Assembly: GCA_942491935.1 (NCBI GenBank)
Contig: CALOCZ010000028.1
Location: 95,719 to 159,718 of the forward strand
DNA: 64,000 bases
Origin: an uncultured Cytophagales bacterium
GTDB lineage: Bacteria; Bacteroidota; Bacteroidia; Cytophagales; Cyclobacteriaceae
Reading direction: 5' to 3'
How positions within the stretch are numbered: the stretch's first letter is position 1; every line of letters starts with the position of its first letter. Shown one piece after another: positions 29,226-48,662 of this stretch. The notes under the pieces are model-generated. The model was not told where the DNA came from. It saw nothing but the letters and a program-made list of their open reading frames with translations, and did not search any database. The position numbers and the translations under genes were made by a program.

Positions 29226-30728
29226 TTAATACAGGTATCTGTGACAATCAGCACACAGATCTTCATCCCATCCTTCTTCGAGTTCTTTTGGATGCACAAA
29301 GTCCAGTGCATCGTTTAATCCGGCTACCATTTCTTCTCCTACTTTTCCTTGTAATATAATGGTATGGCAGATATTACAATCCTTTCGGATCACCTGGCCA
29401 GATTCACTTACATGGTTGTCGTCATGGCAGCGGAAGCATCCATTATACGTTTTATGTCCAATATGATCCGTATAGGCATCCCAGCTGACCTGCATTTCCG
29501 GGAATATGTTTTCGGAGAAACCATCTATGATGCCTGCGATTGCCTGGTTGATATCGTCTATCCTGGATTCATAGACCTCCGGCATTTCTTCCTTATAAAA
29601 ATTAAGTATGGAATTTTCTATGGTCATTAAAGCCGTATCGGTATGATCGAAAGGATCAACAAATATGTCCATCGCAATCTTTTTAATATAGGGAAGATCT
29701 TTTGGAACTTTTCCGGCAGTAATGGCGTCATCCACAAACTCCATTGGCGTATAATAGTGGTGTGACGGCCGGGTATGACAATCCATACAGTCCATTTCTC
29801 TGGAAACCGCAGCTGCCATTTTTTCCTCACTTAGCATATTATCCTCATCTATATATATGATCTCTTCATTTGTTTCCCTGTTGGTATATCTTACCCATGG
29901 AATGTCCTGTCTATTATCTCTTTTTGGGATATATTCGATTTTAACATTAGGATTGATATGCCAGTGAATTCCTTCGGAAAGTCCTTGGGCACTGTGAGAT
30001 GGCCCGGTCTTCATTTGAAGGCCGATATTCCATTCGGTATTCACGCTATCTGTCAAATAATGCTTTTCATTGATAAGTTGCCGTGCATAAAATTTTTCTG
30101 GCCAGTGACATTTTTCACAAGTTTCACGGGCAGGCCGCAAATCATGAATCGGTGTTTCGATTGGTCTTGAAAAATCATTGGTAAGCACTGCATAAACCTG
30201 TCTTAAACCCGAAAGCTTGGACCGCATATACCAATTGGCTCCGGAGCCGACATGGCATTCCACGCAAGCAACTCTGGCATGAGGAGAATTGCTATATGCT
30301 ACATGCTCCGGTTTCATAACTTCATGACAAACAGTTCCACAGAATTCAACTGATTCAGTATAATGAAATGCTTCATAGCTTCCTAAAGCCGTAAGAAAAA
30401 TAAAAAAAACAGTACCCACTCCAAATATCATGATTGCATTTCGGTACCGGGAAACATTGAGGTCTATTACAGGCCATCCTTTAGCTATATATTCTAATTC
30501 ACGTTTTTTTCGACGTTTTACTTCTGCCATCATTCCAATAGGTATTAAGATTAACCCAATGATTAAGAAGACAGGTAAAATAATAAAAGTGAATAAGCCG
30601 AGATATGAACTAGTGTCTGCAAATAAAAATCCAACAAGAGTAAATAATACTATAAAAGACAGGCTTATAACTGCTAACGCTGTTCCTACAAAGGAAAGCA
30701 TATTGTAATAGGACTTAGGTAATTTCAT
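29226..30728 (-). CDS. heptahaem membrane-anchored c-type cytochrome, NapC/NirT-like N-terminal module
   Basis: 500 aa with three N-terminal TM helices. Seven CXXCH motifs: CGTVCH, CVECH, CEKCH, CMDCH, CFRCH, CNICH, CADCH. Confidence 0.8.
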   Translation of the reverse strand: MKLPKSYYNMLSFVGTALAVISLSFIVLFTLVGFLFADTSSYLGLFTFIILPVFLIIGLILIPIGMMAEVKRRKKRELEYIAKGWPVIDLNVSRYRNAIMIFGVGTVFFIFLTALGSYEAFHYTESVEFCGTVCHEVMKPEHVAYSNSPHARVACVECHVGSGANWYMRSKLSGLRQVYAVLTNDFSRPIETPIHDLRPARETCEKCHWPEKFYARQLINEKHYLTDSVNTEWNIGLQMKTGPSHSAQGLSEGIHWHINPNVKIEYIPKRDNRQDIPWVRYTNRETNEEIIYIDEDNMLSEEKMAAAVSREMDCMDCHTRPSHHYYTPMEFVDDAITAGKVPKDLPYIKKIAMDIFVDPFDHTDTALMTIENSILNFYKEEMPEVYESRIDDINQAIAGIIDGFSENIFPEMQVSWDAYTDHIGHKTYNGCFRCHDDNHVSESGQVIRKDCNICHTIILQGKVGEEMVAGLNDALDFVHPKELEEGWDEDLCADCHRYLY

Positions 30729-30967
30729 AATATCAAAAAATTAATATTAAATGTTGAAGTAAAATTACAAATAAAAAAAAGTCAGTATTGATTTTAACTC
30801 GTTGATTTATATCTAATATGGAGTGATATATGTCATAAAAATTCACATATAACATAAAATAAATGGACATCTATAATATTCAAAAAATACAAATAAAATT
30901 AACCTGATGTTAATTAATGATGCAGATGAAACTAAAGCTCATGTTATCATGACAACCTAAAAGGGAA

Positions 30968-32665: not shown

Positions 32666-33199
32666 ATGTTTTTAATGGAATAATATAAAGGATGGGATTG
32701 CTTGAAAATTTTTGCTACCAATCCTGAATTAATTTAGAAATAATTTTCATAAAAATCTAATTAAATTTCCTATATATATGTTTTTGAAATTAATAGAGTT
32801 ATATAAAATATACCAAATGTTGCACCCTCAGCGAATTCCTAAAAACCTCAAACCAATTAGCATAAATATCATTGTCATCACTTTAGGACTTATGCTTAGT
32901 AATAATGTATTCTATTGAGAAATTACTATTTCCAATGTGTTGCATTAACTTTTATTTACATTGGTTTTGCGGATAGCTTCTAACTTTATATTAATATATG
33001 AAAAATGCCAAATATTCTAAAAGTATTTTTAGCAATTATTGGTTTATATTGAAATTATAGCCTCTTTTTCAATAAAAATTGTTTGAAATTCCTAACTAAA
33101 TTTCATACATTTATTTAGAGTAGTTTTTATTTTGGAATTATCTTAATTATCTCAAAATAAGCCTTAGAGTATTTTTTTATTATACTAAAGAATCATCCT

Positions 33200-34171
33200 A
33201 TGAATTCTAGAAAAATCAAAAAGGGACCCTCCAGAAGGAAATTCCTCAAAAACGGATTATCGATTGGGATGGGAGCCGCTGCTTCCACAGGCGTATTTTC
33301 TTCATGTTCGAAAAATGAAGAATCAGAATCTGGTGAAAAAGTGCGCGTAATGACCACTGAAGGTAAGTTGGTTGAAGTTGATGCTTCCCAAATCCATGAA
33401 TCTGTCCATGTTGTTACGAACCAAGAAGCTCGTAAAGGGGATCCGAACCGCGAGTATGTTATGGTGATCGATCTGGCCAAATGCAGGAATGCCCGAAAAT
33501 GTGTAGATGTTTGTCAGCGCATGCACAACCTTCCACTTGAGGATGAATGGATAAAGATATTTTACATGAAGGATAGTGAAGATACTGCTCCTTACTGGTT
33601 TCCTAAACCATGTTTCCATTGTAATAGTCCATCTTGTGTCAATGTATGTCCGGTAGGGGCCACTTTTAAGCGGCAGGATGGTCTTGTTTTGATTGATAAC
33701 GAAAGATGCATTGGCTGCAAATTCTGCATGGCGGCCTGTCCCTATTCCTCCCGTGTGTTTAACTGGAAAGAACCTGAATATGATGAAGATATTAAAGATC
33801 ATCACGGGGCCATTGAAACGGGGATACCTCAAAAGGTGGGCACGGTTGGTAAATGCGATTTCTGTCCGGATATGGCCCGGATGGGGAAGCTGCCTGGTTG
33901 TATAGACGCTTGTCCAAATGGCGTGCTTTATTACGGGGATAAAAATGAAGATTTGATTACCAATGGAACAGAAACCGTCAGATTCAGTCAGATTATATAC
34001 GAAAGGGCGGGTTATAGGTATATGGAAGAATTGGGTACCCGGCCCAGTGTTTATTATCTTCCTCCAGTAAACAGAAGTTTTGATCCTGAGATAGGATTTA
34101 AAGACTTGCCTGATGAGATCCGGCAAAGATATGATGTGAGTCGATCAGAAATTAAAAAGGAAACAAGATGA
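33200..34171 (+). CDS. Tat-exported 4Fe-4S ferredoxin-type subunit (NrfC/PsrB/HybA family)
   Basis: Twin-arginine leader SRRKFLK. Cys motifs CX5CX3C, CFHCNSPSCVNVCP, CIGCKFCMAACP and CDFC...CIDACP. Confidence 0.85.
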   Translation: MNSRKIKKGPSRRKFLKNGLSIGMGAAASTGVFSSCSKNEESESGEKVRVMTTEGKLVEVDASQIHESVHVVTNQEARKGDPNREYVMVIDLAKCRNARKCVDVCQRMHNLPLEDEWIKIFYMKDSEDTAPYWFPKPCFHCNSPSCVNVCPVGATFKRQDGLVLIDNERCIGCKFCMAACPYSSRVFNWKEPEYDEDIKDHHGAIETGIPQKVGTVGKCDFCPDMARMGKLPGCIDACPNGVLYYGDKNEDLITNGTETVRFSQIIYERAGYRYMEELGTRPSVYYLPPVNRSFDPEIGFKDLPDEIRQRYDVSRSEIKKETR

Positions 34172-35490: not shown

Positions 35491-35547
35491 AATGTTCCGA
35501 ATAATGATATTATCAGAATTATTAAGTGGATCATAAATAATTGAAAA

Positions 35548-36444
35548 ATGAAATATTTTATAGATACTAAAAATTTAAAAAGTGTTGTTCTACATCTGAC
35601 TTTACTAATATTTCTCCTTAATGGAAAATATACATTTGCCCAGGAAGATACGCCATTGAGAACCTACTTGGATATTATGTGCTATCAAAAAAGTACAGGT
35701 AAGGATTTGAAAGCCAGTGTAAGGGCAAGGACCGGTGAAAACCAAAAGATCATGCCTGTACCGGGTCTCCCGATCGATTTTTATACCTTCAATGATTCTG
35801 CAGAGGTCCTGTTGGGCAAGGTAGTATCAGATCAGAATGGAGAATCAGCATTTACAATAACTGAAGGTATTGATCTTCTTTTGAATAATGAAAATGGATA
35901 TAGTTTCAAGGCATCTTTTAATGGTAATGAGAACTTTAAAAAGGCGTCGAAAGAACTTTCAATAATGGAGGTTGACATTGAGATCACCTTCATGGAAGTA
36001 GATTCTGTTAAAGTTATTTCAGCTAAAGCCTACGAGATAGATCAATCCTCATCTGAAAAGATACCTTTGGATGGTATTGATCTTTCTTTTTACGTTCCGG
36101 GCTCCTTTAGCCTTTATAAAATTGGTGATGTTGAATTAAAAGATGGAGTTGGTGAGGTGGAATTCCCGGTTACCTTACCTGGTGATTCCGAAGGGAATCT
36201 GACCATAATAGCGAGAATTGAAGATAGCGATGATTATGGCTTTGTAGAAAGTTCTGCGAAAAAGGATTGGGGCAGGGTTCGTGAACCTGTTGTCCTGGAG
36301 GAAAGAAGAGGATTAGGCGATACAGATGCTCCGTTATGGATGACTTATACATTAATAGTTCTTTTAACAGCCGTTTGGATTCACTATCTCTATATTTTTG
36401 TGGTTATTTACTTGATTAAAAAGGATAGTAAGACGGCAAGTTAG
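35548..36444 (+). CDS. secreted beta-sandwich-like protein with C-terminal TM anchor, unknown function
   Basis: 298 aa with a signal peptide ending FAQ. Two similar about 100-aa beta-rich segments and a C-terminal helix LWMTYTLIVLLTAVWIHYLYIFVVIYLI. Confidence 0.5.
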   Translation: MKYFIDTKNLKSVVLHLTLLIFLLNGKYTFAQEDTPLRTYLDIMCYQKSTGKDLKASVRARTGENQKIMPVPGLPIDFYTFNDSAEVLLGKVVSDQNGESAFTITEGIDLLLNNENGYSFKASFNGNENFKKASKELSIMEVDIEITFMEVDSVKVISAKAYEIDQSSSEKIPLDGIDLSFYVPGSFSLYKIGDVELKDGVGEVEFPVTLPGDSEGNLTIIARIEDSDDYGFVESSAKKDWGRVREPVVLEERRGLGDTDAPLWMTYTLIVLLTAVWIHYLYIFVVIYLIKKDSKTAS

Positions 36445-36937: not shown

Positions 36938-36969
36938 AAAAAAAAATCCCGCTCTGGCGGGATTTTTTT
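36938..36969 (-). terminator. Rho-independent terminator (bidirectional shape)
   Basis: A9 run, stem ATCCCGC (36946-36952), loop TCTG, stem GCGGGAT (36957-36963), then T7. It lies 19 nt beyond the stop of the minus-strand cytochrome gene. Confidence 0.7.
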
Positions 36970-36987: not shown

Positions 36988-38172
36988 TCAGAGAGCAGCT
37001 CCTTCCATTACTTCGATTGAATTTTCGAGCAACGCTTTATAATAAGCCGGGTTATGTACACCTTCGCTTCGGTCTTCTTCGAGACCAATCCAGTTAAAGA
37101 AGGCCTGAGCAAATTCAACAGGATGCAATCCAACAATTGGTTCATATCCTTCCGGTGTGACCACCAGTTCAATTACTCCTGTTTCAGGATTCAACTCGTA
37201 ATGCTCTTCTTCTACAAATTCAAGAACACCTTCTGCTACCAACAGATCCCTTAGCTCTTCAAGGAGTGCTGCAGTTTCTGTCTGAACATTGTTTAAATTG
37301 AAATCAGTTGCACCACCATCATGGCATTCAGCCACATTACATCCATCTAATGCAGGATTCCAGGTATGTCCACCGGCTCCATTGCCATAATCTGCCATAT
37401 GACAACCTGTACATCTGCCAAAGTCTGCATCATTATGACTAGCTGATTCTGCTGCAGGATAATTAAATGCTCCTTCAATTTCAGCAAAGCCTACGCCCAC
37501 CATTACATTGGATTGAGCACCATGATGTGGTCCATAATGTGTACTGTTGATAAAGAAATAACCATCAGGTACTTCAGTTTCATCTATATCATCATCGTCA
37601 AGGTCAACCATTTCGCCGCCCATGTCATATGGACCTGACCTTCTTGACTGGTGACAGTTCGCACATAGATTGCTGTTGCCAAGGTCATAGGTTGTGGCTG
37701 TTGAATCAAAGATAAAGTTAATAGGATCAGCAAGCCTCAGGGCATAGTCTGTCTGCTCAAAGGTTTCATGGATCGAGTGACATGTTTTGCACTCCCAGGC
37801 ACTTGGCGCAGAAATGTTTTCCTCAACCTCACCTGTCCGTGCAAATTCAATGAATCCTTCGCTTGAGTGACATTGTGCACACCCTGAACGTCCTCCTGCA
37901 TAGTCAACAGCTATCTGTCCGGCAGCGTGAACTGATTGATTAAACTGCTCTAAAATAATTTGTGGTGTTTCAGCTGAGTGACATTGTAAGCATGATACAT
38001 TGCCATCCACACCATCTGTACCATCCGTACCATCCACACCATCTACACCGTCCGTACCATTAGCACCAGCTGGTCCTGCTGGCCCTTCGGGACCTTCGCA
38101 GCCTGACATGAAGGCCAATCCAATCACAAAACTGGCTGCGATTAAACAATTCAAAAAAATTCGCTTTCTCAT
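36988..38172 (-). CDS. multihaem c-type cytochrome lipoprotein with N-terminal collagen-like GXY stalk
   Basis: 394 aa with lipobox FMSGC. Ten consecutive G-X-Y triplets. Five CXXCH motifs (CLQCH, CAQCH, CKTCH, CANCH, CTGCH) plus CNVAECH (CX4CH). Confidence 0.8.
   Translation of the reverse strand: MRKRIFLNCLIAASFVIGLAFMSGCEGPEGPAGPAGANGTDGVDGVDGTDGTDGVDGNVSCLQCHSAETPQIILEQFNQSVHAAGQIAVDYAGGRSGCAQCHSSEGFIEFARTGEVEENISAPSAWECKTCHSIHETFEQTDYALRLADPINFIFDSTATTYDLGNSNLCANCHQSRRSGPYDMGGEMVDLDDDDIDETEVPDGYFFINSTHYGPHHGAQSNVMVGVGFAEIEGAFNYPAAESASHNDADFGRCTGCHMADYGNGAGGHTWNPALDGCNVAECHDGGATDFNLNNVQTETAALLEELRDLLVAEGVLEFVEEEHYELNPETGVIELVVTPEGYEPIVGLHPVEFAQAFFNWIGLEEDRSEGVHNPAYYKALLENSIEVMEGAAL
38002..38094 (-). 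repeat. coding triplet-periodic repeat (collagen-like GPE GPA GPA GAN GTD GVD GVD GTD GTD GVD G)
   Basis: Residues G27-G57 of the cytochrome lipoprotein. At DNA level there are reiterated GGTACNGATGG/GGTGTGGATGG units. Confidence 0.85.
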
Positions 38173-38555: not shown

Positions 38556-39715
38556 ATGGGAAATAAGATATTATTAATTTTTAGATCTGCGGGAATGATA
38601 CTTTTCATGGGTTTAATAGGATGGAGTTGTACATCTGACCAGATTGGGCTTGAATTACCGGAGATAGAGCAACCACCACCGCAGGCGTACATAGGCTCTG
38701 CAGAATGTGCAGTTTGTCATACGGATATATATAATTCATTTATTACGACAGGGCATCCGTACAAACTTATGAAAGTTGAAGGAGGGAAGCCACCGGAATA
38801 TCCGTTTACAATACTGGATTATACACCTTCAGGCTATACATGGGATAATCTGACCTATGTGATCGGTGGGTACTATTGGAAAGCGCGATACATTGACTCT
38901 AATGGATATATCGTTACAGGCGATGATGTGCAATGGAACTTTGAGACACAGGAGGCAGTTGCCTATCATGCGGATGAGGAGCGCCTGGCACAAAAATGTA
39001 TGATTGCGGTAGATGTCATACAACTGGTTGGGTAAGTGTTGATGATGGAGGTGATCCACAAGATGATCTGGATGGAATGGCCGGTGAATTTTATGCAACT
39101 GGAATACAATGTGAGGCCTGCCATGGAGAAGGTGCAATACATCAATATACCAAATCGAAAGATGATATCGTATTAGACCGGTCTTCAGAATTATGTGGAT
39201 CCTGCCATTATCGAAATGAGGACCATACCATCGCCGCAAGCGGTGGATTTATCAAGCATCATGAACAATACGATGAGATGATTGCTGCCGGTCACAGTGT
39301 ATTGAGTTGTAATGATTGCCACGATCCTCATAAAACCACTAAGCATGGTCAGATGGGTGGAATAACAAAGACGTGTACAGATTGTCATACGGAGATCGTT
39401 AATGGTCAGGACCACCGGGGTGTAGCGGATTGTGAGACATGTCATATGCCATATGCATCGAAGACTGCTGTTGCCCGTACTAAGTATCAGGCTGATATAA
39501 TGACACATATCTTTAAGATCAACGTGGATGCCGATGGGGAAATGTTCAATGAGGATGGTACATTAGCTAATGGATCTACTGGTGTTACACTTGATTATGT
39601 ATGTTATCGATGCCATAAAGATCCTGAGGGTGTAGGAGGAAGTCCTGATTTTCCCGCGACGTCCAGAAAGACTATGGAAGAATTATCAGAATACGCGACA
39701 GGATATCACGATTAA
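38556..39715 (+). pseudogene. octahaem c-type cytochrome lipoprotein, split by one frameshift
   Basis: ORFs 38556-39035 (frame 0) and 38996-39715 (frame 2) are collinear. Lipobox LIGWSC. Eight CXXCH in total (CAVCH; CGRCH, CEACH, CGSCH, CNDCH, CTDCH, CETCH, CYRCH). The frame change is within 38975-38996 (A5 run at 38992-38996). Confidence 0.7.
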
Positions 39716-39735: not shown

Positions 39736-39772
39736 AAAAAAATCCCGCCTACTAGATGCAGGCGGGATTTTT
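39736..39772. terminator. bidirectional Rho-independent terminator between convergent genes
   Basis: A7 run, 10-bp stem AATCCCGCCT (39741-39750) / AGGCGGGATT (39760-39769), then a T5 run. Confidence 0.7.
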
Positions 39773-39793
39773 CATTTATAAAGTCTAATATTT

Positions 39794-40768
39794 TTATTCA
39801 TTAAGCCATCTGGCTGCATCCTTAGCATAATAAGTCAGTATAAGATCTGCACCGGCTCTCTTTATGGATGTAAGCATCTCCATGGCCACTTTCTGTTCAT
39901 CAATCCAACCCAGCTTGGCTGCCGCCTTTACCATGGAAAATTCACCACTCACATTGTAAGCAGCTACCGGAAGGTTAATTTGTGATTTCACTTTGTAAAT
40001 AATATCGAGATAGGCAAGCGCCGGCTTCACCATAATGATATCAGCGCCTTCATTTATATCTAATTCCACTTCATACATCGCCTCCCTGGTATTTGCCGGA
40101 TCCATCTGATAAGCTCTGCGGTCTCCAAATTGCGGCGTTGATTCTGCGGCTTCCCTGAACGGGCCGTAAAAACCTGATGCGTATTTTGCGGCATAGCTCA
40201 TGACAGGGATATTTTCAAAATTGTTATCATCCAGGCCTTTTCTGATGGCCCCAACCATACCATCCATCATCCCTGAAGGGGCTACCATATCTGCCCCGGC
40301 TCTGGCATGTGTCACTACCTGGTCGGAAAGCATTTGAAGAGTAGTGTCATTGTCAACTCCGCCATCTTTTATGGCTCCGCAATGGCCGTGATCCGTATAT
40401 TCACAGAAACAGACATCAGTAATAACGTACATTTCAGGAACAGCTTCCTTTACAGCTGAAACAGCCCGTTGGATGATGCCCTGGTCATTTACCGCATCAC
40501 TACCGGTAGCATCCTTATGGTCCGGAATACCAAATAATATTATGGCCTGAACACCCAGTGAGTAGGCGTCTCTTACTTCCTTGATAAGAAGGTCAATGGA
40601 TAGTTGATCATTACCTGGCATAGAACTGATAGGGTTCCTGACGTTTTTTCCTTCAACCACAAATAATGGCAGGATCAAATCATTAACTGTCAAGGTGGTT
40701 TCTCTAACCAGGTTTCGAATGGCGTCGTTTCTTCTTAACCTTCGGGGTCTATAATACGGTGTAAACAT
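39794..40768 (-). CDS. hemB: porphobilinogen synthase (delta-aminolevulinate dehydratase)
   Basis: 324 aa with the RPRRLR N-terminus, the Cys-rich metal site [14 protein letters not shown] and the active-site MVKPA. Confidence 0.9.
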
Positions 40769-40778
40769 ATCAAAAAAT

Positions 40779-42170
40779 TTATACGGTTCTTGAAAATTGT
40801 GGTTTATCCTTTTCTTTTTTCATTAGATACTCATCAAATTTCATGGCAATATTTCTAATCAACAATCGGCCGCCATTTGTAACCGACAATTTATCGCTTT
40901 CCAGTTCAATAAGACCATCATCCTGCAACGATTGAAGTTCTTCCAAAGCATCCTTAAAATGAACATCAAAATTGATGTTGTATTTTGTTTCAATCTTTTT
41001 CTTGCTCAACCGGAAATTGCACATTAATTCTGTGATCACATCCCTTCTAAGAATATCTTCCTCATTCAGAATTATCCCGCGCATAATGGGTAATTGGTCC
41101 TGATCAATCAGCGTATAGTATTCTTTAAGGGTTTTAACATTTTGCATATAAGTGTCAGAAAGCATGGCTATACTTGTTATCCCCAGTGCAAATAGGTTAA
41201 TGCCCGCGTGGGTTGAATAACCCTGGAAATTTCTGTATAAGGTGCCATTCTCCAATGCGATGGTCAATTCGTCATCAGGCTTTGCGAAATGGTCCATTCC
41301 AATATAGGTATATCCCGCATCAGATAACTTATCAATACTCAGTTTCAGCAATTGCAGTTTTTCTTCTCTTGGAGGAATCCATTCTTCTTTTATTAATTTC
41401 TGATGCTTGATTATGCTGGGTAGGTGTGCATAATTAAATACAGCAAACCTGTCTGGATTCATAGATAAAACCTTATCAATAGTTTCATAAAAAGAATCTA
41501 CTTTCTGGAAAGGCAGCCCATACATCAAGTCCAGGTTTATACTCTTAAAACCAAGCTCCCTTGACCAATCAACTGTTTGACGGGTTATATCTTCAGGTTG
41601 GATCCGGTTAACCGTTTCCTGTACCTTGGCATCAAAATCCTGAACACCCATGCTGCACCGATTGAATCCCATATCACTAAGGGCCTTCATGTGGTCATAA
41701 GTAAGCTCGCGTGGATCTATTTCTACTCCCACCTCAGCGTTCGTTTGAAAATCAAAATTATCATGGATAATATTCCCCAATCTACGTATTTGATCGGGTG
41801 ACAGATGTGTTGGTGTTCCACCGCCCCAATGGAGCTGAATAATTTTTCTCTTCCCGTCAATATGACGTTTTAAGACCTGGATCTCTTTTTCAATGTAATC
41901 GATATATGTTTCGATCTTATCATAATTCCGGGTAACCATCATATTGCAACCACAGAAATAACAAAGTGTATCGCAAAATGGTAAATGGAAATATAAAGAA
42001 AGGTCGGAATTTTCTAAAGAAGAGTTGTCCTGGGAAATATGAGTAATATATTCCTCATAGCCAATACCTTCGTGAAAATAAGGAGCAGTCGGGTAACTGG
42101 TATATCGTGGACCCGGCTGGTCATATTTCTTAAGAAGGTCTAAATCAACTGAAATTTTATCTTGGAACAT
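40779..42170 (-). CDS. hemN: oxygen-independent coproporphyrinogen III oxidase (radical SAM)
   Basis: 463 aa with PRYTSYPTA and the [15 protein letters not shown] radical-SAM motif. Confidence 0.9.
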
Positions 42171-42200
42171 ATTTGAAAAATAATTTAATCCTATTAATTA

Positions 42201-43253
42201 TTAAACTGCTCGAGCATGCAGCTTTTCGCTTATTTCACGCACTGTATCAACCAGGAAATATACGTTATCCACAGGAATGTCTGGTAAAATACCATGACCC
42301 AGGTTAAAAACATGCCCGCTATCAGGTCCAAAAACTTCCAGTACCCTGGTCACTTCTTTTCTGATGATGTCATGGCTGCCATATAATGTTGTGGGATCCA
42401 GGTTCCCCTGAAGTGCAAAATTTGTGCCCAGCAGATTTTTTGCTTCTTTCAAATCAGTCATCCAGTCGATACCGATCATATTTGCGCTGCTGTCAGACAA
42501 TTGTTTGGCCAGTTCGATTCCGCCTTTGCTGAACAAAGTTACCGGAACACCAAATTTTTTAAGATTAGCAGCTATTTGTTTCATATACCTGGCTGAAAAT
42601 GGTTCATATAAATGAACTGGCAAAATTCCTCCCCAGGTATCGAATAATTGAACAGCCTGAACTCCCGCCTCAATCTGCATGACCAGGTACCTGCTTACGG
42701 CTTCAGTCAGCATTTCCAACAATGATGTAAGTCGTTGTGGATCATGATACAGCATTTGCTTAATGAATTTGAAATTTCTGGTAGGTTTACCTTCTATCAT
42801 ATAAGTAGCTAAAGTAAAAGGAGATCCACTAAATCCGATCAATGGAGTTTTGCCACCTAATTCAGTACTTATCATTTTTATGGCATCCCCCACATAAGAT
42901 AATTTAGATTCTATATCCTGAAGATTTAACTTTTCGATATCCTTATCCAGTAAGATCTGAGGAGATAGTTTTGGGCCATGATTTTCCAGAAATGCAAGGT
43001 TTTGCCCTAACGCTTCCGGAATGACCAAAATGTCTGAGAACAGGATAGCTGCATCAAAACCGAACCGTCTTATTGGTTGTAAAGTAACCTCTGTAGCCAG
43101 TTCCGGTGTTTTACATACCGTTATAAAATCATGTTTTTTTCTTACATCCATATATTCCGGTAAATAGCGGCCTGCCTGCCTCATGATCCATATTGGGGTC
43201 CGTTTTACCGGTTTCTTATTAATTGAATCAATATATAAATAATTGTTGCTCAT
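42201..43253 (-). CDS. hemE: uroporphyrinogen decarboxylase
   Basis: 350 aa with the IWIMRQAGRYLPEY signature. Confidence 0.9.
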   Translation of the reverse strand: MSNNYLYIDSINKKPVKRTPIWIMRQAGRYLPEYMDVRKKHDFITVCKTPELATEVTLQPIRRFGFDAAILFSDILVIPEALGQNLAFLENHGPKLSPQILLDKDIEKLNLQDIESKLSYVGDAIKMISTELGGKTPLIGFSGSPFTLATYMIEGKPTRNFKFIKQMLYHDPQRLTSLLEMLTEAVSRYLVMQIEAGVQAVQLFDTWGGILPVHLYEPFSARYMKQIAANLKKFGVPVTLFSKGGIELAKQLSDSSANMIGIDWMTDLKEAKNLLGTNFALQGNLDPTTLYGSHDIIRKEVTRVLEVFGPDSGHVFNLGHGILPDIPVDNVYFLVDTVREISEKLHARAV

Positions 43254-43311
43254 TTCATTAATTTAATTACAATCCAGAATCGTATTTCTTTTAGGTAAAA
43301 ATATGGGCCGA

Positions 43312-44241
43312 TCACTCTTGTTTAGAACTGAAGTTATCCAATAAAGTTTTGGCTCCTTGCTTTAATAGTTTTTCGGCCAGTGTCCTCCCGGCTAAAACAG
43401 AATTTTCCATATCGGACTCTACCTGATCATGGATTATTTTCTTACCGTCTTCACTTGCTACAAAACCCCGAATGCTTAGTTTGTTATCAGATACTCGAGC
43501 ATATGATCCTACTGGAAACTGACAACCGCTGTCGAGGGTAAATAATAATTCTCTTTCAGCAGACACAGCGTGAAAAGTTTCAAGGTGGTTAATCGACTGT
43601 AAAACTTCTGCAATATCCTTGTCTTTCTTACGAATTTGTATCCCTACAGCTCCCTGTCCAACAGCGGGGATCATATTGTCAGTAGCAAATTCCTTAAAAT
43701 TTACATTCTCAAGATTCAACCTGATAATGGCTGCCTTAGCCATGATTATAGCATCCAGGTTCTGGGCATTGAGTTTGCTGAGCCTTGTATCTATATTTCC
43801 GCGTAAATCGGAGATCAATAGATCAGGCCTCATATTTAATAATTGTGATTTTCTTCGGATGCTTCCAGTAGCGATTCTGGCATTTTCAGGTAATTGTTCA
43901 AGTGAGAGGCCTTCTTTAGTAACCAGGACATCTTCGACTGGCCCTCTTTCCGGGACAGCCCCTAAAACAAGCTCTTCCGGCATTTTTGAAGGAAGGTCTT
44001 TTAAGGAATGAACAGCAACGTCTATTTGATCTGTCAATAAAGCCCTTTCAATTTCCTTAGTAAATATTCCCTGACCTCCGATCTGGGTTAGTGAGGATTT
44101 TTGATCCAGGTCACCTTCTGTTTTAATTATTACCTGTGTGAAATTAATTCCTGGATTCAGTTTTTCCAGCATCTCTCTTACATAAGTCGCTTGCCATAAT
44201 GCCAGATTGCTTCCCCTGGTTCCAACGCGGATCGTTCGCAT
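43312..44241 (-). CDS. hemC: hydroxymethylbilane synthase (porphobilinogen deaminase)
   Basis: 309 aa with RVGTRGSNLALWQA and DLRGNIDTRL. There is no fused HemD domain at this length. Confidence 0.9.
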   Translation of the reverse strand: MRTIRVGTRGSNLALWQATYVREMLEKLNPGINFTQVIIKTEGDLDQKSSLTQIGGQGIFTKEIERALLTDQIDVAVHSLKDLPSKMPEELVLGAVPERGPVEDVLVTKEGLSLEQLPENARIATGSIRRKSQLLNMRPDLLISDLRGNIDTRLSKLNAQNLDAIIMAKAAIIRLNLENVNFKEFATDNMIPAVGQGAVGIQIRKKDKDIAEVLQSINHLETFHAVSAERELLFTLDSGCQFPVGSYARVSDNKLSIRGFVASEDGKKIIHDQVESDMENSVLAGRTLAEKLLKQGAKTLLDNFSSKQE

Positions 44242-44245
44242 ATAT

Positions 44246-45553
44246 CTATTTATCTAAGTCTATTTCGTACAAATTATATATCAGGTCGATGTGCTGCTTA
44301 TATTTTTCCGGATCACCAGCATTCTTTTTCAGGGATTTCATATGTTGGCGCACCAATTTATTAATCACATTCTGGGTGTAGTTATCAAGTTCCTTCTGGT
44401 ATCCATTTTCAGGAAACTGCTTTCGCATCCTGGTCATTTCATTATGGTGAAGTTTTTCAAAATGGCTTTTTAGCTTACTAATGATTGTGGCCATTGAATT
44501 GGTAGATACCCAGCTTTTAAACTCATCAAGATATTCCTCCACAATCTTTGATGCTTTAGGGATTTCCAATCTTCTTTTCTCCAGGTTTTGCTCAACTATC
44601 CCATTGAGATCATCCAGGTTGTAAAGGTATACGTTATTAAGGTGCTCAATTTTCGGATCTATATCCCTGGGGATGGCCAGGTCAATCAGGAAAATGGATT
44701 CATAGTATTTTTTTCTGATGATTTCTTTCATCATGCTATTGGTGATCACATAATCATCACTTGAAGTTGCAGAGATCACTATATCGGTTTCCTCCAATGC
44801 AGCGTTCAACTCACCAAGGGTAAAAGCTTTACCTCCAAATTTTTCAGCGAGTTCTTCAGCTTTGCTCAGGGTACGGTTGGCAACATTGATGGCTTTTACA
44901 TTGTTTTCAAGGAAGTGGACAGCGGCTAATTCAGCGGTTTTCCCTGCTCCAACCAGCAATATCCGCTTATCGGTAAGGTCGCCGAATATTTTCCTGGCCA
45001 GCTCCACCCCTGCAAAACTGACAGACACTGTTCCATCAGAAAGAAAGGTTTCATTTCTAACCTTTTTCTTAACCTGCATCCCAAAATTATACAGCTTATT
45101 CAATACTGCATCTGTAGCATCCAGATGATGGGCAAAGTTATAGCAATCTTTCACCTGGCCTGTTATCTGCATTTCCCCAACAATTTGAGAATCAATACCG
45201 CAAATCACATTATAAAAATGACTTACAGCTTCTGATCCAAATTTCTCATAGGTGATATTCCCATCGGTGTAATAAGGACATTTCTTATACGTGGCAAGCA
45301 TTTGCTTTAAAGCAGGAAGAATAATATCTGGTTTTTCAGCACTTATATAGAATTCAGTCCGGTTACAGGTTGACAGGATCAGGATGCCCTGAACCTCAAT
45401 TCCATTAACATCAAAATCTTCAGTGATCTTTTTTATAATCCCCTTCTGTTCTTTCTCATTGAGAGATACGAGTTCCCTTATTTCTACAGAAGCTGTTTTA
45501 TGGGAAATCCCTAGAACTCCTAATGCAATATGGCTATCCTGATTATCCCTCAT
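44246..45553 (-). CDS. hemA: glutamyl-tRNA reductase
   Basis: 435 aa with GISHKTASVEIRE, STCNRTEFY and the NAD fold LVGAGKTAE. Confidence 0.9.
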   Translation of the reverse strand: MRDNQDSHIALGVLGISHKTASVEIRELVSLNEKEQKGIIKKITEDFDVNGIEVQGILILSTCNRTEFYISAEKPDIILPALKQMLATYKKCPYYTDGNITYEKFGSEAVSHFYNVICGIDSQIVGEMQITGQVKDCYNFAHHLDATDAVLNKLYNFGMQVKKKVRNETFLSDGTVSVSFAGVELARKIFGDLTDKRILLVGAGKTAELAAVHFLENNVKAINVANRTLSKAEELAEKFGGKAFTLGELNAALEETDIVISATSSDDYVITNSMMKEIIRKKYYESIFLIDLAIPRDIDPKIEHLNNVYLYNLDDLNGIVEQNLEKRRLEIPKASKIVEEYLDEFKSWVSTNSMATIISKLKSHFEKLHHNEMTRMRKQFPENGYQKELDNYTQNVINKLVRQHMKSLKKNAGDPEKYKQHIDLIYNLYEIDLDK

Positions 45554-45555
45554 CC

Positions 45556-46380
45556 TTAATTAAACTCATGAAACGTTTCTGTAATATAAACAATCATAAA
45601 TCCTCCAACTACTAAGATAAAATAACCGGCAATTGACAAATATGCCATCTTCTTTCCATTTAATCTAAGATACTGGGCAATTATATATCCGGTAAGATAT
45701 AATGCCCATACTATATCCGTTGCGATCACTTTCATATCATTTGGCCAGAATTCACCCATAATAGCTTCTGCCTGAATATGTCCTAGCAATAACCCAATTC
45801 CAAGTAGGATAATTCCTATAAATGCAGATTGTATACTCATTTTCTCAAGGAATGAAAGCGCAGGAAGTTGGTTAAATAGCTTCCCTAAATTGCGTTTTTT
45901 AAGGTTGTGGTTTTGTATGATATACATAATGGCATACAAAGTAGACAAGGACATCGCAGTATAACCCATTATTGATAGTGATGCATGTAAGGCAAATGTA
46001 GGACTTGTTAAAAGTTCGTTGGTTTCTACCTCCCATGACAAGTTAAATGACGATATTAATTCAAGGATAAAAGCAAAGAAAAGGATAAAGATACCTGAGC
46101 CCCGGATTTTCAACCTTAGTTCAATGATCATGTACACAAATAAAATTGAAAAGGCTAAAAAGCTTAATGCATCATGAATCGTTGATAGTGGGATTGATTT
46201 CAGAACTGCATGCCTTAAGCCTATATCTGTACCGTGAATAATCAGCAGAATCCCTAAAAACAGGGTTGTCTTGTGCGTCCAGCTCTTTTTCTTTCCGGTA
46301 AATATTATATAATAAATATATATAACAGCCAGATATAAAATCGGCAGCAGGTAACTTAGAGTTTGACTGGCGACTTTCAT
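45556..46380 (-). CDS. cytochrome c assembly (CcsA) family paralogue, HemX/YpjD-like
   Basis: 274 aa with 8 TM helices. The position of the CcsA Trp-rich motif reads MGEFWPNDMKVIATD (degenerate). It ends 3 nt before hemA. Confidence 0.65.
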   Translation of the reverse strand: MKVASQTLSYLLPILYLAVIYIYYIIFTGKKKSWTHKTTLFLGILLIIHGTDIGLRHAVLKSIPLSTIHDALSFLAFSILFVYMIIELRLKIRGSGIFILFFAFILELISSFNLSWEVETNELLTSPTFALHASLSIMGYTAMSLSTLYAIMYIIQNHNLKKRNLGKLFNQLPALSFLEKMSIQSAFIGIILLGIGLLLGHIQAEAIMGEFWPNDMKVIATDIVWALYLTGYIIAQYLRLNGKKMAYLSIAGYFILVVGGFMIVYITETFHEFN

Positions 46381-46535
46381 TTTTTTACTTTCTTAATATA
46401 TAATAATATCTCATCCGAGGATATAAAATATCCTTAAATATACGAGTTTTTCAAATATTGAAATATGACATGTATCAGACAAATATTTGACATACACTCA
46501 GTTATAATTTATTTATTAACCGGATCAGGTAAATT

Positions 46536-48662
46536 TTAATCATCAGACTCATCTGTTAGCTCACCCTGGACTTCCAGCTTATTTTTCAAATTGATATCAT
46601 TAATAACAGCTAAAACACTTATTATAGTTATTCCTCCAATCATATAATATATAAAAGATGGAACAGGAACCGGATCCCCCTGCGCATAAGAGTGTAATCC
46701 TGACAGGTAATAATTTACTCCAAAATATGTCATCAATACCGCACCAAATCCAATATGAGCCATAAAGTTTATTGAAAAAAGGTTCCTCATTCCTGGAATC
46801 AGCCGCATATGAAGGATGAATGTATAAACAATAATTGTAACAAGCGACCAGGTTTCCTTTGGATCCCAACCCCAGTATCGTCCCCAGGATTCATTGGCCC
46901 AAATTCCTCCAAGGAAGTTGCCAATAACCAATAATATCAATCCAACCATAAGCGACATTTCAATTATAATGGTTAATTCTTTCAATTTCAGATTAATTCT
47001 CTCATGGTTGGCCTGATTCCTGAAAATCATAATTACAAGATTAATAATTCCTATCATTGAAGCCAGTCCAAAGAACCCATAACTAGCGGTAATGGTTGCC
47101 ACATGGAATGTAAGCCAATACGATTTCAATACAGGGACAAGGTTAGTAATTTCAGGATTCAACCAGCTCATGTGTGCTGTAAGCAGTGTAATCCCCGCCA
47201 AAATGGTGGTTGCCGATAATGTCATTGGAGATTTTTTATAGAAAATAAATCCTGCAAGCATCGTGGCCCATGCAATATATATCATGGATTCATATCCATC
47301 ACTCCAGGGGGCATGTCCGGAAATATACCATCGTAGCCCTAATCCGAATGTTTGAAAAACAAAGGCTGCCATGAGAAGCATATAGAATACCCTGATTATT
47401 TTTTTGAACTCAAGACTGGGTTTAAACAATTGAATGATAAACAATCCCAAAAGGATAAGGCCTATGGTCATGTAAATCGGGAAAAGCCGTTTAAAAATAT
47501 TAAACTTATTGTAAAAGATCTCCAGTTTCAATTTAGTATTGGAGGGTATGATAGCCTTCCCATATTTTTGCTGATGTTCCTTGATTTCTGACAAAACCTC
47601 TTCAGCTTTCTGATAATTTCCTGTGGTTATGCTTTTACTAATGGTTTCTCTTATATTGTCAAGATAGGTGGTTCTGTTTGTTGCAACAGTATCTTTTATC
47701 CGGATCTTTGCAAGTGAAACCCAGGTGTTTTCCTTATTGTCAGGAATAGGGTATACCCGGAATAAAGATCCGTTATATACCATATTGCTTACATTAACCC
47801 TTTCATCTACATTGATAATTTCCTTATCAATTTTTGATCGCAGGGCAGGGGACATGGCATAAATCCTGTCAACTTCACTTTTCAATTTATAAATGCCCCT
47901 TTCGTCAAAAAAGTCATTGTAACTGGCAAAATTATCTTTGATTCCAATGAGTTTCTGAACATCAGCTTCATAAATTTTAATCATTGGTTTGTTTTGCCAA
48001 ACATCCGGCATGATCAGCATTCCCAGGAATACCTGGTCGGCGTTCATCTTTTCAAAGGACGTTTTCTTATATATTTTAACAAGTGAATTATTGGCAATCG
48101 TGTTTAATGGGATTATCCTGCCGTCTTTGTTTTGAACCAATAGTTTACCGAATGATTCTGCAAAATCTTTATCAATTTTAGTTGCTCCCGTTTGAGCATT
48201 TGCATTATCTGTAAAAAACAGGAATGAAAGCAAGAATATTACAGATACTGCTATCTTCTTTCTCTGTGCATGCACTTCATTCATTTGTTTGGTTAGCCGG
48301 GCAAACCGCGTATTTGGAGTAAAAAGAGATAATGTAAGGGACACAAATAATAAGGTATAGCCTATATATGTGATAAGCGTTCCCCAGAAATCATGATTTA
48401 CCGAGAGGACTGTCCCCTGTTCATCCTGATCATATGAGGATTGATAAAACCGATACCCTTTGTAATCCAATACATTGTTCATGAAAATACGGAAAGGTCT
48501 TTCTTCCGCTGCATTCTTGTCAATGAGTACAATATCACTCGCAAAGGAAGAGGGACTTTGAGAGCCCGGATAGCGTTCCAGTTCAAATTTGTTGAGTTTT
48601 AGCTCAAAAGGAATGGTATAAACCTGATTCCCTATATTCATTGTAAATTGTATGTCATCCAT
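46536..48662 (-). CDS. ccsBA: System II cytochrome c maturation protein, ResB(CcsB)-CcsA fusion, 5'-truncated at the sequence join
   Basis: 708 aa. The N-terminal part matches the end of the ResB periplasmic domain (ERYPGSQSPSSFASDIVLID). The C-terminal part carries the canonical WGRYWGWDPKETW motif. The N-terminal ResB TM/His region is missing. Confidence 0.75.
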   Translation of the reverse strand: MDDIQFTMNIGNQVYTIPFELKLNKFELERYPGSQSPSSFASDIVLIDKNAAEERPFRIFMNNVLDYKGYRFYQSSYDQDEQGTVLSVNHDFWGTLITYIGYTLLFVSLTLSLFTPNTRFARLTKQMNEVHAQRKKIAVSVIFLLSFLFFTDNANAQTGATKIDKDFAESFGKLLVQNKDGRIIPLNTIANNSLVKIYKKTSFEKMNADQVFLGMLIMPDVWQNKPMIKIYEADVQKLIGIKDNFASYNDFFDERGIYKLKSEVDRIYAMSPALRSKIDKEIINVDERVNVSNMVYNGSLFRVYPIPDNKENTWVSLAKIRIKDTVATNRTTYLDNIRETISKSITTGNYQKAEEVLSEIKEHQQKYGKAIIPSNTKLKLEIFYNKFNIFKRLFPIYMTIGLILLGLFIIQLFKPSLEFKKIIRVFYMLLMAAFVFQTFGLGLRWYISGHAPWSDGYESMIYIAWATMLAGFIFYKKSPMTLSATTILAGITLLTAHMSWLNPEITNLVPVLKSYWLTFHVATITASYGFFGLASMIGIINLVIMIFRNQANHERINLKLKELTIIIEMSLMVGLILLVIGNFLGGIWANESWGRYWGWDPKETWSLVTIIVYTFILHMRLIPGMRNLFSINFMAHIGFGAVLMTYFGVNYYLSGLHSYAQGDPVPVPSFIYYMIGGITIISVLAVINDINLKNKLEVQGELTDESDD

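Follow-up and report, generated by a model that had tools for sequence, protein, structure and literature searches.

Gene content of the locus

The window (the whole 64,000-nucleotide stretch analyzed here, from contig CALOCZ010000028.1 of an uncultured Cytophagales bacterium) carries between positions 29226 and 48662 an island of genes for three multihaem cytochromes, an NrfCD-type pair followed by a third protein that we call U298, enzymes of haem synthesis and System II cytochrome maturation proteins. Judged from its gene products, the island is probably an uncharacterized anaerobic electron-export pathway put together from known protein families. Its genes and features are as follows.

29226..30728, minus strand: predicted ImcH-family inner-membrane heptahaem menaquinol dehydrogenase, 500 amino acids (aa), three transmembrane (TM) helices, PF03264
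30968..32665, minus strand: Mem565, a 565-aa polytopic membrane protein with an N-terminal coiled-coil segment and about 12-14 hydrophobic segments
33200..34171, plus strand: NrfC/DsrO-like Fe-S protein of 323 aa, predicted to be exported by the twin-arginine translocation (Tat) pathway; RRKFLK motif, four Cys groups, Fer4_11 at 69.9 bits
34168..35490, plus strand: NrfD/DsrP-like membrane subunit without cofactors and with a putative quinone site; PF03916 at 108.7 bits, about 10 hydrophobic helices
35548..36444, plus strand: U298, with a signal peptide, two immunoglobulin (Ig)-like beta-sandwich domains and a C-terminal TM helix
36940..36969, no strand assigned: bidirectional terminator-like hairpin separating the convergent genes for U298 and Cyt6; 13-bp stem, T-runs on both strands
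36988..38172, minus strand: Cyt6, a hexahaem lipoprotein with a collagen-like Gly-X-Y stalk (residues 26-57); lipobox ...FMSGC25, five CXXCH plus CX4CH, PF01391
38556..39715, plus strand: octahaem lipoprotein related to OcwA/OmhA; lipobox ...IGWSC25, eight CXXCH after repair, frame broken in this assembly
39737..39773, no strand assigned: terminator-like hairpin between the convergent octahaem and hemB genes; 16-bp stem followed by a T-run
39794..45553, minus strand: hemA-hemC-hemE-hemN-hemB operon, read right to left, all above NCBIfam equivalog cutoffs
45556..46380, minus strand: CcsA-family membrane protein of 274 aa, directly upstream of hemA; PF01578 at 80 bits, TIGR03144 at 82.7 (cutoff 187.6)
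46536..48662, minus strand: ResB-CcsA (CcsBA) System II fusion, 5'-truncated; PF05140 over profile positions 197-273 only, PF01578 at 131.6 bits

The three cytochromes together contain 19 CXXCH motifs, one CX3CH and one CX4CH, and not the 20 canonical motifs counted in the first-pass annotation of this DNA. A search of every six-frame open reading frame (ORF) of 70 aa or more across the 64 kb found C-X2-4-CH motifs in no products other than these cytochromes and two small proteins encoded at 22968-23894, and the clustering of haem motifs is thus not due to chance.

The NrfC-NrfD-U298 module

The start of nrfD overlaps the stop of nrfC by 4 nt. The first-pass annotation had proposed a Tat-exported Fe-S protein and an NrfD-type subunit lacking a molybdopterin partner, and this was confirmed by the RRKFLK motif, by the Fer4_11 and PF03916 matches, and by the absence of a molybdopterin subunit from the window and of any subunit of that size beside NrfCD in 59 related loci. 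These loci were obtained by an NrfD scan of species-representative genomes and all derive from Bacteroidota metagenome-assembled genomes (MAGs). They comprise flanks of up to 10 kb on each side, shorter at contig ends, and their ORFs were compared to the window proteins by BLASTP; gene sizes were used throughout, and gene maps with Pfam on representative loci. Individual loci are given L numbers below.

Profile searches confirmed the protein families, while alternative complex III (ACIII), Qrc, Dsr and Nrf were not reached at equivalog level. The best NCBIfam matches were DsrO for NrfC (174, cutoff 200) and DsrP for NrfD (74, cutoff 350), and the scores for NrfC (120, cutoff 377.6), QrcC (119, cutoff 400), QrcD (39, cutoff 570), HmcB (86, cutoff 420), TtrB (118, cutoff 416) and NrfH (53.4, cutoff 134.2) were also below cutoff. 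Because all equivalog cutoffs were missed, the pair is, as judged by its sequence, an NrfCD-type module that is not a member of any named complex. Membership of Qrc, Dsr, Hmc, Ttr or Arr was rejected on these scores, and the partners DsrJ/K/M, QrcA/B, HmcA and a molybdopterin subunit were not found in the window or the related loci. An ACIII was rejected as well, in agreement with the first-pass annotation: that complex has a pentahaem ActA, an ActB with a molybdopterin-like domain and two NrfD-type subunits (ActC/ActF), but here there is one NrfD gene only, the 323-aa NrfC lacks such a domain and no gene resembling ActA lies next to the pair. A classical NrfABCD or NrfHA system had been dismissed for want of a CXXCK motif; no CXXCK was found and NrfC and NrfH score below their equivalog cutoffs, so that an exact Nrf match is lacking, but both lipoprotein cytochromes fall into the NrfA/ONR/OcwA superfamily and a relation at superfamily level stands.

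No family for U298 was found in Pfam, NCBIfam or the PDB. Its AlphaFold2 (AF2) model (predicted local distance difference test score, pLDDT, 82.9) begins with a signal helix, continues with two Ig-like sandwiches and ends in a TM helix, and Foldseek searches of the PDB returned generic Ig-like matches only (TM-score < 0.3). Its C-terminal motif RGLGDTDAPLWM...W..HY does not vary among 48 homologs, and a profile search at E ≤ 1e-3 retrieved 998 clusters at 50% identity. Wherever a related locus extends far enough, U298 comes after NrfD in essentially all cases, and in a single case (P0365, 740 aa) an NrfD 64% identical to the window NrfD is fused to U298, which may be a Rosetta-stone fusion or a read-through artifact of gene calling. 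NrfC, NrfD and U298 form an invariant core, in which this type of NrfCD has U298 as its obligate partner.

In most cases a class-I monohaem cytochrome c (PF13442/PF00034; MonoC) comes after the core, and a small CXXCH/CX4CH lipoprotein and a DUF5777 'membrane bound beta barrel' protein often come before it. In 55 of the 59 NrfD-anchored loci the core occurs without ImcH in the flanks, and the lineages carrying it include Chitinophagaceae, Ferruginibacter, Lacibacter, Terrimonas, Lentimicrobiaceae and Flammeovirgaceae, among others. Two Bacteroidales MAGs (L012 and L017, positions 4500-7500) encode a sensor kinase and a sigma-54-type response regulator, typed by length and N-terminal sequence, directly upstream of Lip132-DUF5777-NrfC-NrfD-U298-MonoC, with additional 2-haem and 4-haem lipoproteins downstream.

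To our knowledge, U298 has no counterpart in Nrf, Dsr, Qrc, Hmc or ACIII. Our literature search found no description of an NrfCD complex with an Ig-like subunit, and a review of the NrfD family lists no complex with a U298-like subunit (PMC8076601). NrfD-type complexes are able to work in either direction (PMC8076601), and for the orphan NrfCD of Melioribacter roseus a role in supplying electrons to multihaem cytochromes of the periplasm and to an outer Fe(III) reductase was suggested earlier (PMC3534657).

The ImcH-family cytochrome and Mem565

The 500-aa product of 29226..30728 had been described as a three-TM heptahaem NapC/NirT-like cytochrome, and it is indeed one: hydropathy peaks at residues 18-43, 44-62 and 98-116 mark three N-terminal TM helices, a CX3CH motif (CGTVCH) at residue 130 is followed by CXXCH motifs at 155, 204, 314, 431, 451 and 492, and the NapC/NirT profile PF03264 is matched with 35.6 bits (cutoff 24.1). 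The NrfH structure 2J7A is matched as well (E 2.7e-4). According to Zhong and Shi (2018; PMC6295460), ImcH homologs are 495-519 aa long and combine three N-terminal TM helices with an atypical CX3CH motif by the membrane domain and six CXXCH motifs, and the window protein shows every one of these published architectural features. In the ImcH of Geobacter sulfurreducens, H137 is the haem-1 ligand and Q179 the distal ligand, and E127, K173 and Y188 are conserved (bioRxiv 10.1101/2023.05.03.539133). Read against the published residue numbers, E125, H135, K171 and Q177 of the window protein are spaced as in the Geobacter protein, and F186 takes the position of Y188. The purified Geobacter protein oxidizes the menaquinol analog menadiol and reduces periplasmic cytochromes, its menaquinol oxidation is electroneutral with protons released to the periplasm, and its N-terminal four-haem part superposes on NrfH (10.1101/2023.05.03.539133). 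The heptahaem protein thus fits the ImcH family, within the NapC/NirT/NrfH superfamily, and menaquinol oxidation, as well as a requirement in the respiration of high-potential extracellular acceptors, would be expected of such a family member; the resemblance to ImcH-type quinol-to-periplasm conduits suggested in the first-pass annotation is borne out by the architecture and agrees with the Glu/Lys/Gln spacing.

At least 7,904 homologs were found at E ≤ 1e-5 among 8,000 candidates scored, and every named one among the best 120 matches is from Bacteroidota. Homologs in Cyclobacteriaceae, Cytophagales, Bacteroidales and Tenuifilaceae are labeled just 'NapC/NirT family cytochrome c', and the occurrence of ImcH in Bacteroidota has already been noted (PMC6295460; 10.1101/2023.05.03.539133).

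For the adjacent Mem565, Pfam gives a weak DUF2339 match only. Mem565 is found on the same strand after NrfC-NrfD-U298 in L008-L010 and between NrfCD-U293-MonoC and ImcH in L071, and is a conserved neighbor of both ImcH and NrfCD.

The lipoprotein cytochromes

Both lipoprotein cytochromes of the first-pass annotation were recovered, Cyt6 with the motifs described for it; the octahaem gene, however, is split into two ORFs by a 2-nt insertion. The Cyt6 family has at least 1,767 matches, including proteins of about 50% identity in cultured Ancylomarina, Draconibacterium, Labilibaculum and Sunxiuqinia. The family alignment (A3) shows a conserved Gly-X-Y run of about 10 triplets directly after the lipidated Cys, recognized by Pfam as collagen-like in 39 of 50 members, which suggests a trimeric stalk of about 9-10 nm tethering the cytochrome to a membrane. 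Most members have six canonical CXXCH motifs, the window subclade having CX4CH at the sixth site (residue 278), and exactly six non-motif His are invariant for the six haems. CX4CH at homologous haem sites is seen in this clade both at the sixth haem of Cyt6 and in the small Lip132-type cytochromes (22968-23894; L003 4522-4920).

The A3 profile matches NrfA chains with E 8e-5 over the last two haems (haem-4/5 region) and the C-terminal helices, including 'GVHNP'. H246 of Cyt6 aligns with a His of NrfA just upstream of the haem-4 motif, which we take to be the active-site His. Weak PF02335 matches were obtained for 35 of 50 family members, and none for the window Cyt6 at E ≤ 0.01. The AF2 model of Cyt6 (pLDDT 79) gave NrfA and the octahaem nitrite reductase (ONR) as best Foldseek matches, with weak scores (E 0.014, TM-score 0.34).

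For the octahaem protein, phmmer searches found OmhA (6QVM_A, E 5.2e-11, query residues 39-303) and OcwA (6I5B_A, E 1.1e-8, residues 44-222), which belong to one superfamily with NrfA, ONR, MccA, OTR, HAO and c554 (PMC9250108). Read against the published description (PMC9250108), its sequence retains a KHH motif that resembles the pairs of distal His at penta-coordinate haems of OcwA and OmhA. Identity as MccA was rejected, as had been done in the first-pass annotation for Mcc/Sir, since there is no CX15CH and the size is wrong. Cyt6 and the octahaem protein are, by sequence comparison, distant members of the NrfA/ONR/OcwA superfamily, which contains soluble-oxyanion reductases as well as surface metal reductases, and their sequences would be compatible with either role.

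Haem synthesis and maturation genes

The five hem genes named in the first-pass annotation all exceed their equivalog cutoffs (TIGR01035 408 bits, TIGR00212 349, TIGR01464 426, TIGR00538 638, NF006762 523). That annotation had placed the genes for making and attaching haem beside the cytochromes; this stands for hemB-hemN-hemE-hemC-hemA and CcsBA, but hemD, hemL, hemH and hemG/Y were not found in the block, and the haem pathway encoded here is partial. HemN is the oxygen-independent enzyme, consistent with an anaerobic demand for haem.

The CcsA paralog and the ResB-CcsA fusion are supported by their PF01578 and PF05140 matches. The 274-aa paralog aligns to the true CcsA domain around the WWD motif only, and its motif is degenerate ('MGEFWPND' against 'WGRYWGWD'), on which ground a role as dedicated haem lyase was rejected; it looks like a HemX-type protein. 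In Bacillus subtilis, hemX sits beside hemA in the hem operon. The fusion has an intact WWD motif (WGRYWGWD) and scores 180 against the TIGR03144 cutoff of 187.6. Complete System II CcsBA proteins are about 900-1030 aa long; this assembly lacks the first approximately 317 residues, and the part present aligns with 318-1019 of the 1022-aa L003 homolog. Full-length copies of 1022-1034 aa are present in L003, L071 and L072. All five relatives of at least 50% identity (L003, L071, L072, L074 and L075) adjoin NrfCD-U298 or multihaem cytochromes, which hints at a client-dedicated CcsBA paralog linked to the island, and such a protein may need to handle the non-canonical CX3CH and CX4CH spacings. A hemA or CcsA-like gene beside ResB-CcsA was seen in none of 80 ResB-CcsA-anchored metagenome loci, and hem/ccs adjacency is confined to the clade of the window.

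Transcription units and conservation of the neighborhood

The first-pass annotation regarded the block as self-contained. By orientation and hairpins, at least five transcription units can be distinguished, namely Mem565-ImcH (minus), NrfC-NrfD-U298 (plus), Cyt6 (minus), octahaem (plus) and CcsBA-CcsA-like-hemACENB (minus). A sigma-70 promoter scan gave fewer matches than shuffled sequence, and since its consensus is not that of Bacteroidota it is uninformative; Rfam and tRNA scans found nothing in 29226-48662.

Comparison of neighborhoods, which had been proposed as a check, showed that pieces of the island cluster in L003, L071 and L072, but that the whole block is kept in the clade of the window only. 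There, ImcH, Mem565, Cyt6, octahaem and hem genes all flank the NrfCD module (L005-L007 and L052, as well as L001 from the ImcH look-up). The L003 module is also flanked by ImcH, Cyt6, octahaem and ResB-CcsA, without Mem565 or hem genes, in the order octahaem, Cyt6, CRP, Lip132 and DUF5777, then on the same strand NrfC-NrfD-U295-MonoC-ImcH-ResB-CcsA. In L071 (GCA_024280115.1, JAJRQT010000071.1, positions 1-21503), a single strand encodes an EB_dh protein, Lip, DUF5777, MonoC, NrfC-NrfD-U293-MonoC, Mem545, ImcH, NrfC-NrfD-U286, NrfC-NrfD-U288-MonoC and, further on, a 1034-aa ResB-CcsA, i.e. three tandem NrfC-NrfD-U29x modules with ImcH and Mem545 embedded and three monohaem cytochromes c. The Bacteroidales MAG locus L072 (GCA_019038645.1, JAHOYT010000011.1, positions 10001-21503) combines ImcH with a c554-like cytochrome, a cytochrome b, a 928-aa multihaem/cytochrome b fusion (CbcL-like), DUF5777 with small lipoproteins, a Cyt6-like protein, CRP and ResB-CcsA, without NrfCD. 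A NuoEF-like/[FeFe]-hydrogenase-like set is located just upstream. ImcH stands alone in L004 and L073, and Cyt6 is absent from L071 and several kb away from ImcH/NrfCD elsewhere.

In summary, with at least five transcription units, with NrfCD-U298 and ImcH occurring apart and with a partial haem pathway, the block of about 19 kb is not one conserved self-contained unit. The association of its pieces is not random, and they cluster in several lineages.

Upstream genes

Counterparts of the small lipoprotein and DUF5777 genes that often precede the core elsewhere, together with a YceI gene, lie at 22968-25347 in the window, about 8 kb upstream, and are preceded by genes for an extracytoplasmic function (ECF) sigma factor and a CRP-family regulator.

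19219..19848, plus strand: CRP/FNR-family regulator, candidate island regulator; PF00027, PF13545 and PF00325
22968..23894, plus strand: two small cytochrome-c-like proteins of 189 aa and 114 aa; CQISNCH and CAIPGCH (CX4CH), weak PF13442 matches
23921..24466, plus strand: YceI-like periplasmic protein; PF04264 at 57 bits
24450..25347, plus strand: DUF5777 predicted membrane beta-barrel, frameshifted at about 25005; PF19089 at 180 bits, profile positions 1-143 of 247

The two small CX4CH proteins are related to 'Lip132', a small lipoprotein encoded ahead of DUF5777 in other Bacteroidota; their similarity to Lip132 of L003 is weak, and Lip132-DUF5777 pairs precede NrfC in many loci. YceI adjoins Lip132-DUF5777 in L054 and L063 as well. 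An intact 300-aa DUF5777 copy is present in L052 (273-1175), and tblastn continues the window copy in another frame to 25347. At about 300 aa, this is the only barrel candidate in the window, and that it might form an outer-membrane component is a guess on our part; the literature search found no mention of the DUF5777 family. No porin-cytochrome (MtrAB) conduit, in which a porin of some 20 or more strands is combined with a decahaem-type cytochrome, was found in the window, where MtrC/DmsE-family matches were weak and below cutoffs.

CRP-family genes are found inside the equivalent islands of L001, L003 and L072. A search for FNR/CRP boxes (TTGAT-N4-ATCAA, at most one mismatch) gave 7 matches with 6.4 expected, i.e. 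no enrichment, and the link of the CRP-family regulator to the island is weak. Between the DUF5777 cluster and ImcH, at 25563-28970, the window carries mtnA (S-methyl-5-thioribose-1-phosphate isomerase), an aldolase/mtnB-like gene and an M20 amidohydrolase gene, an arrangement that is kept in L001, L005, L007 and L052.

Composition break and probable assembly errors

The guanine plus cytosine (GC) content of the window is about 0.34-0.42 up to 48.6 kb and 0.49-0.61 thereafter.

48663..48680, no strand assigned: composition break and probable chimeric join; Bacteroidota DNA with GC of about 0.37 to the left, alphaproteobacterial-like DNA with GC of 0.5-0.6 to the right

The switch at 48,663 is abrupt and immediately precedes the start codon (ATG) of the ResB-CcsA ORF; an in-frame stop is found six codons farther upstream. 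On the left side, NrfD is 98% identical to that of a Roseivirgaceae MAG (L005) and 97% to that of a Cytophagales MAG (L052, on a 1.2-Mb contig), and 24,178-45,549 of the window aligns to L052 at 91-95% nucleotide identity. On the right side are two IS6/IS240 transposase genes (51721-52521 and 58067-58612), a radical S-adenosylmethionine (SAM) gene, a NUDIX gene and a KatG fragment of 577 aa (60497-62230) whose 90%-identity cluster is the Methyloceanibacter KatG; a plasmid search of this part found nothing beyond katG-level similarity. A SAM-I/IV riboswitch aptamer (RF01725, 61.8 bits, gathering score 41.1) is located at 53068-53172 on the plus strand, upstream of small ORFs. In exact look-ups, NrfD, U298, the CcsA-like protein, the 708-aa ResB-CcsA and the KatG fragment were each recorded on one 160,003-bp NCBI contig. 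Both sides of the break are thus on one deposited contig and the junction lies inside it, and this contig is probably a Bacteroidota/Alphaproteobacteria chimera, with chimeric assembly as the simplest explanation. The loss of the CcsBA N-terminus is probably due to this join.

The octahaem gene is split into ORFs 38556-39035 and 38996-39715 by a 2-nt insertion at about 38979-38981, as seen against the intact 385-aa gene of L052. The split ORFs are found in the deposited NCBI contig only, and short-read Logan contigs encode an intact protein with 383 of 385 residues identical (99%). Likewise, the truncated 191-aa product of the DUF5777 frameshift at about 25005 is found in the NCBI contig only. 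Both frameshifts are probably consensus errors of long-read type in the deposited assembly; real pseudogenes are less likely, given the intact 99%-identical copies. L052 carries a frameshift of its own in Mem565, near window position 31644, which is probably an error of this kind too. The two apparent oddities of the locus, a split octahaem and a truncated CcsBA, appear to stem from the deposited assembly.

Proposed electron-export pathway and alternatives

We propose that menaquinol would be oxidized at the periplasmic face of the inner membrane by the ImcH-family heptahaem cytochrome, and possibly also by the cofactor-less NrfD, with electrons leaving via the four Fe-S clusters of NrfC and the NrfCD pair held together with the anchored, Ig-like U298. 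The electrons would pass to the two lipid-anchored cytochromes, the collagen-stalked hexahaem and the OcwA/OmhA-like octahaem, as terminal or penultimate carriers, and from there to an acceptor outside the cytoplasmic membrane, most likely an extracellular/insoluble or surface-accessible oxidant, for which the DUF5777 barrel and the small CX4CH cytochromes might provide an outer-membrane step. The neighboring hem operon and CcsBA would supply and attach the haem, as separate units and not as a dedicated machine. While the protein families, haem motifs, topology signals, unit boundaries and recurrent co-localization are seen directly, we infer the direction of electron flow, the pairing of quinol modules and cytochromes, the location of the lipoproteins and the acceptor, and that menaquinol electrons run by way of ImcH and/or NrfCD and the multihaem lipoproteins to an acceptor beyond the inner membrane, in a lineage-specific juxtaposition of genes of a Roseivirgaceae/Cytophagales bacterium, is a tentative reading whose chance of being right we put slightly short of even.

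This pathway is supported by the architecture and key-residue spacing of ImcH together with the activity of the purified Geobacter protein, by NrfC and NrfD domains lacking a catalytic partner in the window and 59 related loci, and by the same-strand clusters of L003 and L071, the grouping in L072, the neighbors of the CcsBA relatives, the OmhA/OcwA homology and the six His of Cyt6. Several points weigh against it. Every close relative is a MAG; NrfC-NrfD-U298 is mostly accompanied by a class-I monohaem cytochrome c without ImcH or multihaem genes and may serve a different chain; ImcH is also found alone (L004 and L073). The cytochrome superfamily includes nitrite, sulfite and tetrathionate reductases, to which the alignment of Cyt6 H246 and the KHH of the octahaem protein add weight. 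Furthermore, no MtrB/porin-cytochrome-type conduit was found in the window, the role of DUF5777 is a guess, and no surface-export signal was established for either lipoprotein, lipoboxes being all that is visible.

Alternatively, Cyt6 and/or the octahaem protein might be catalytic on nitrite, hydroxylamine, sulfite, tetrathionate or a similar periplasmic substrate, with the ImcH-type (NrfH-like) and NrfCD modules acting as quinol dehydrogenases as in NrfHA and NrfABCD, an explanation that we consider not likely but a serious contender. The profile match of Cyt6 to NrfA structures, H246 on the presumed NrfA active-site His, NrfA and ONR as top Foldseek matches, and the PF02335 matches within the family all agree with it. 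So do the KHH of the octahaem protein where OcwA and OmhA have distal His pairs at penta-coordinate haems (PMC9250108), the superposition of the four-haem N-terminal part of ImcH on NrfH (10.1101/2023.05.03.539133) and the presence of NrfC and NrfD, the electron-input subunits of E. coli-type Nrf. However, CXXCK is missing, the structural similarity is low (TM-score 0.34, E 0.014), PF02335 is not matched by the window Cyt6 itself at E ≤ 0.01, and its six invariant non-motif His suffice for six bis-His haems; moreover, NrfC, NrfD and NrfH score far below equivalog cutoffs, Cyt6 is not tightly linked to ImcH/NrfCD elsewhere and is absent from L071, and OcwA, the closest characterized relative of the octahaem protein, is a terminal reductase of extracellular electron transfer.

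The neighborhood might also be coincidental, with NrfC-NrfD-U298 as a stand-alone quinol:cytochrome c oxidoreductase (or cytochrome c:quinone reductase) of aerobic, microaerobic or denitrifying metabolism, working via a monohaem cytochrome c and functionally unrelated to ImcH and the multihaem lipoproteins, and with hem/ccs as housekeeping genes. We regard this as unlikely: the 55 of 59 NrfD loci without ImcH or a window-homologous multihaem gene in the flanks, usually with a monohaem cytochrome c, the separate transcription units, the interruption of the island by mtnA, the mtnB-like gene and the M20 peptidase, and the hem/ccs adjacency in 0 of 80 other ResB-CcsA loci speak for it, but the L071 ImcH among three NrfC-NrfD-U29x copies and the L003 order NrfCD-U295-MonoC-ImcH-CcsBA are hard to explain by chance, Mem565 links the two, coming after U298 in L008-L010 and before ImcH in the window, and the closest CcsBA relatives always adjoin these genes. 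Finally, electrons might be taken up instead of exported: Fe(II) or some other donor, extracellular or periplasmic, would deliver them to the DUF5777 barrel with its small cytochromes, and the cytochromes of the periplasm and NrfCD would carry them on to the quinone pool or to oxidases. Fused cytochrome-porins are used in Fe(II) oxidation, and a small cytochrome paired with a beta-barrel is reminiscent of them. Uptake would also agree with the reversibility of NrfD-type complexes (PMC8076601) and with the NrfCD module being common in aerobic Chitinophagaceae; against this, ImcH homologs have so far been reported only in Fe(III) reducers (PMC6295460), HemN is an oxygen-independent enzyme and there is no direct evidence for inward flow, and we find uptake very improbable.

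Beyond the electron-export pathway proposed here, we speculated if NrfC-NrfD-U298 is an unrecognized three-subunit quinone-interacting complex that, often with MonoC, a small CX2-4CH lipoprotein and DUF5777, forms a minimal trans-envelope conduit widespread in Bacteroidota (about 1,000 U298 clusters at 50% identity), and that was expanded in lineages such as the present one with ImcH, the collagen-stalked hexahaem, the OcwA-like octahaem and a client-dedicated CcsBA capable of attaching haem at CX3CH and CX4CH sites; as a whole, this wider idea is quite doubtful. Every catalytic family involved, ImcH in Bacteroidota and orphan NrfCD feeding multihaem cytochromes are already known or proposed, while the obligate U298 subunit, the recurrent Lip/DUF5777 pairing, the collagen-stalked hexahaem and the island-linked CcsBA subclade appear to be undescribed.

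Although Bacteroidota abound in sediments, sludge and soils, respiration that is extracellular or based on multihaem proteins is seldom ascribed to them. Should the proposed pathway be true, many uncultured Cytophagales, Bacteroidales and Chitinophagales would possess quinol-to-cytochrome export via ImcH and NrfCD-U298, which would bear on estimates of the reducers of metals, humics and N/S oxyanions in anoxic habitats; U298 would be a new type of subunit for NrfD complexes, and the collagen-tethered cytochrome a new multihaem architecture. Cultured Marinilabiliales with Cyt6 homologs make the hypothesis testable.

Comparison with known systems

Compared with ImcH of G. sulfurreducens (GSU3259), the window protein is alike in length (500 aa versus 495-519), in its three N-terminal TM helices, in the CX3CH after TM3 with six further CXXCH, in the NapC/NirT/NrfH-like region, and, as read from the published residue numbers, in the distances from the haem-1 His to Glu (-10), Lys (+36) and Gln (+42). 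It differs in Phe186 at the position of Tyr188 and in its surroundings, where Mem565, NrfCD-U298 and lipoprotein cytochromes are found, and not Ppc-type trihaem partners or Omc/Ext porin-cytochrome complexes.

The NrfCD pair resembles orphan NrfCD modules (E. coli NrfCD, DsrOP of DsrMKJOP and Mros1571-1572 of M. roseus) in combining a Tat-exported Fe-S protein of four Cys groups with a haem-less NrfD in the absence of a molybdopterin subunit, and in the proposed role of quinol oxidation feeding periplasmic c-type cytochromes (PMC3534657; PMC8076601). In contrast to these, the type found here is always accompanied by the third subunit U298 and, in most lineages, by a class-I monohaem cytochrome c partner.

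Cyt6 shares a homologous C-terminal half with NrfA and ONR (the last two haem motifs, long helices and GVHNP), and these are the best structural matches of its AF2 model. Nevertheless, it has six haems, no CXXCK, an N-terminal lipid anchor with a collagen-like stalk and a TM-score of 0.34, and it remains below the Pfam and NCBIfam family thresholds. An Arg follows its haem-3 motif, where NrfA has Tyr. The octahaem protein is homologous across haems 1-6 to OcwA of Thermincola potens and OmhA of Carboxydothermus ferrireducens, both cell-surface terminal reductases, and keeps their His pair, but has 8 haems as opposed to 9 (OcwA) and 11 (OmhA) and about 360 mature residues as opposed to about 500-650, and is a lipoprotein of a diderm Bacteroidota and not a Gram-positive wall or S-layer protein.

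Finally, the maturation protein shares with System II CcsBA of the Helicobacter, Wolinella and Bacteroides type the ResB-CcsA fusion and the intact WWD motif. While the copy in the window is without its first approximately 317 residues, the subclade to which it belongs is repeatedly encoded next to multihaem and NrfCD genes.

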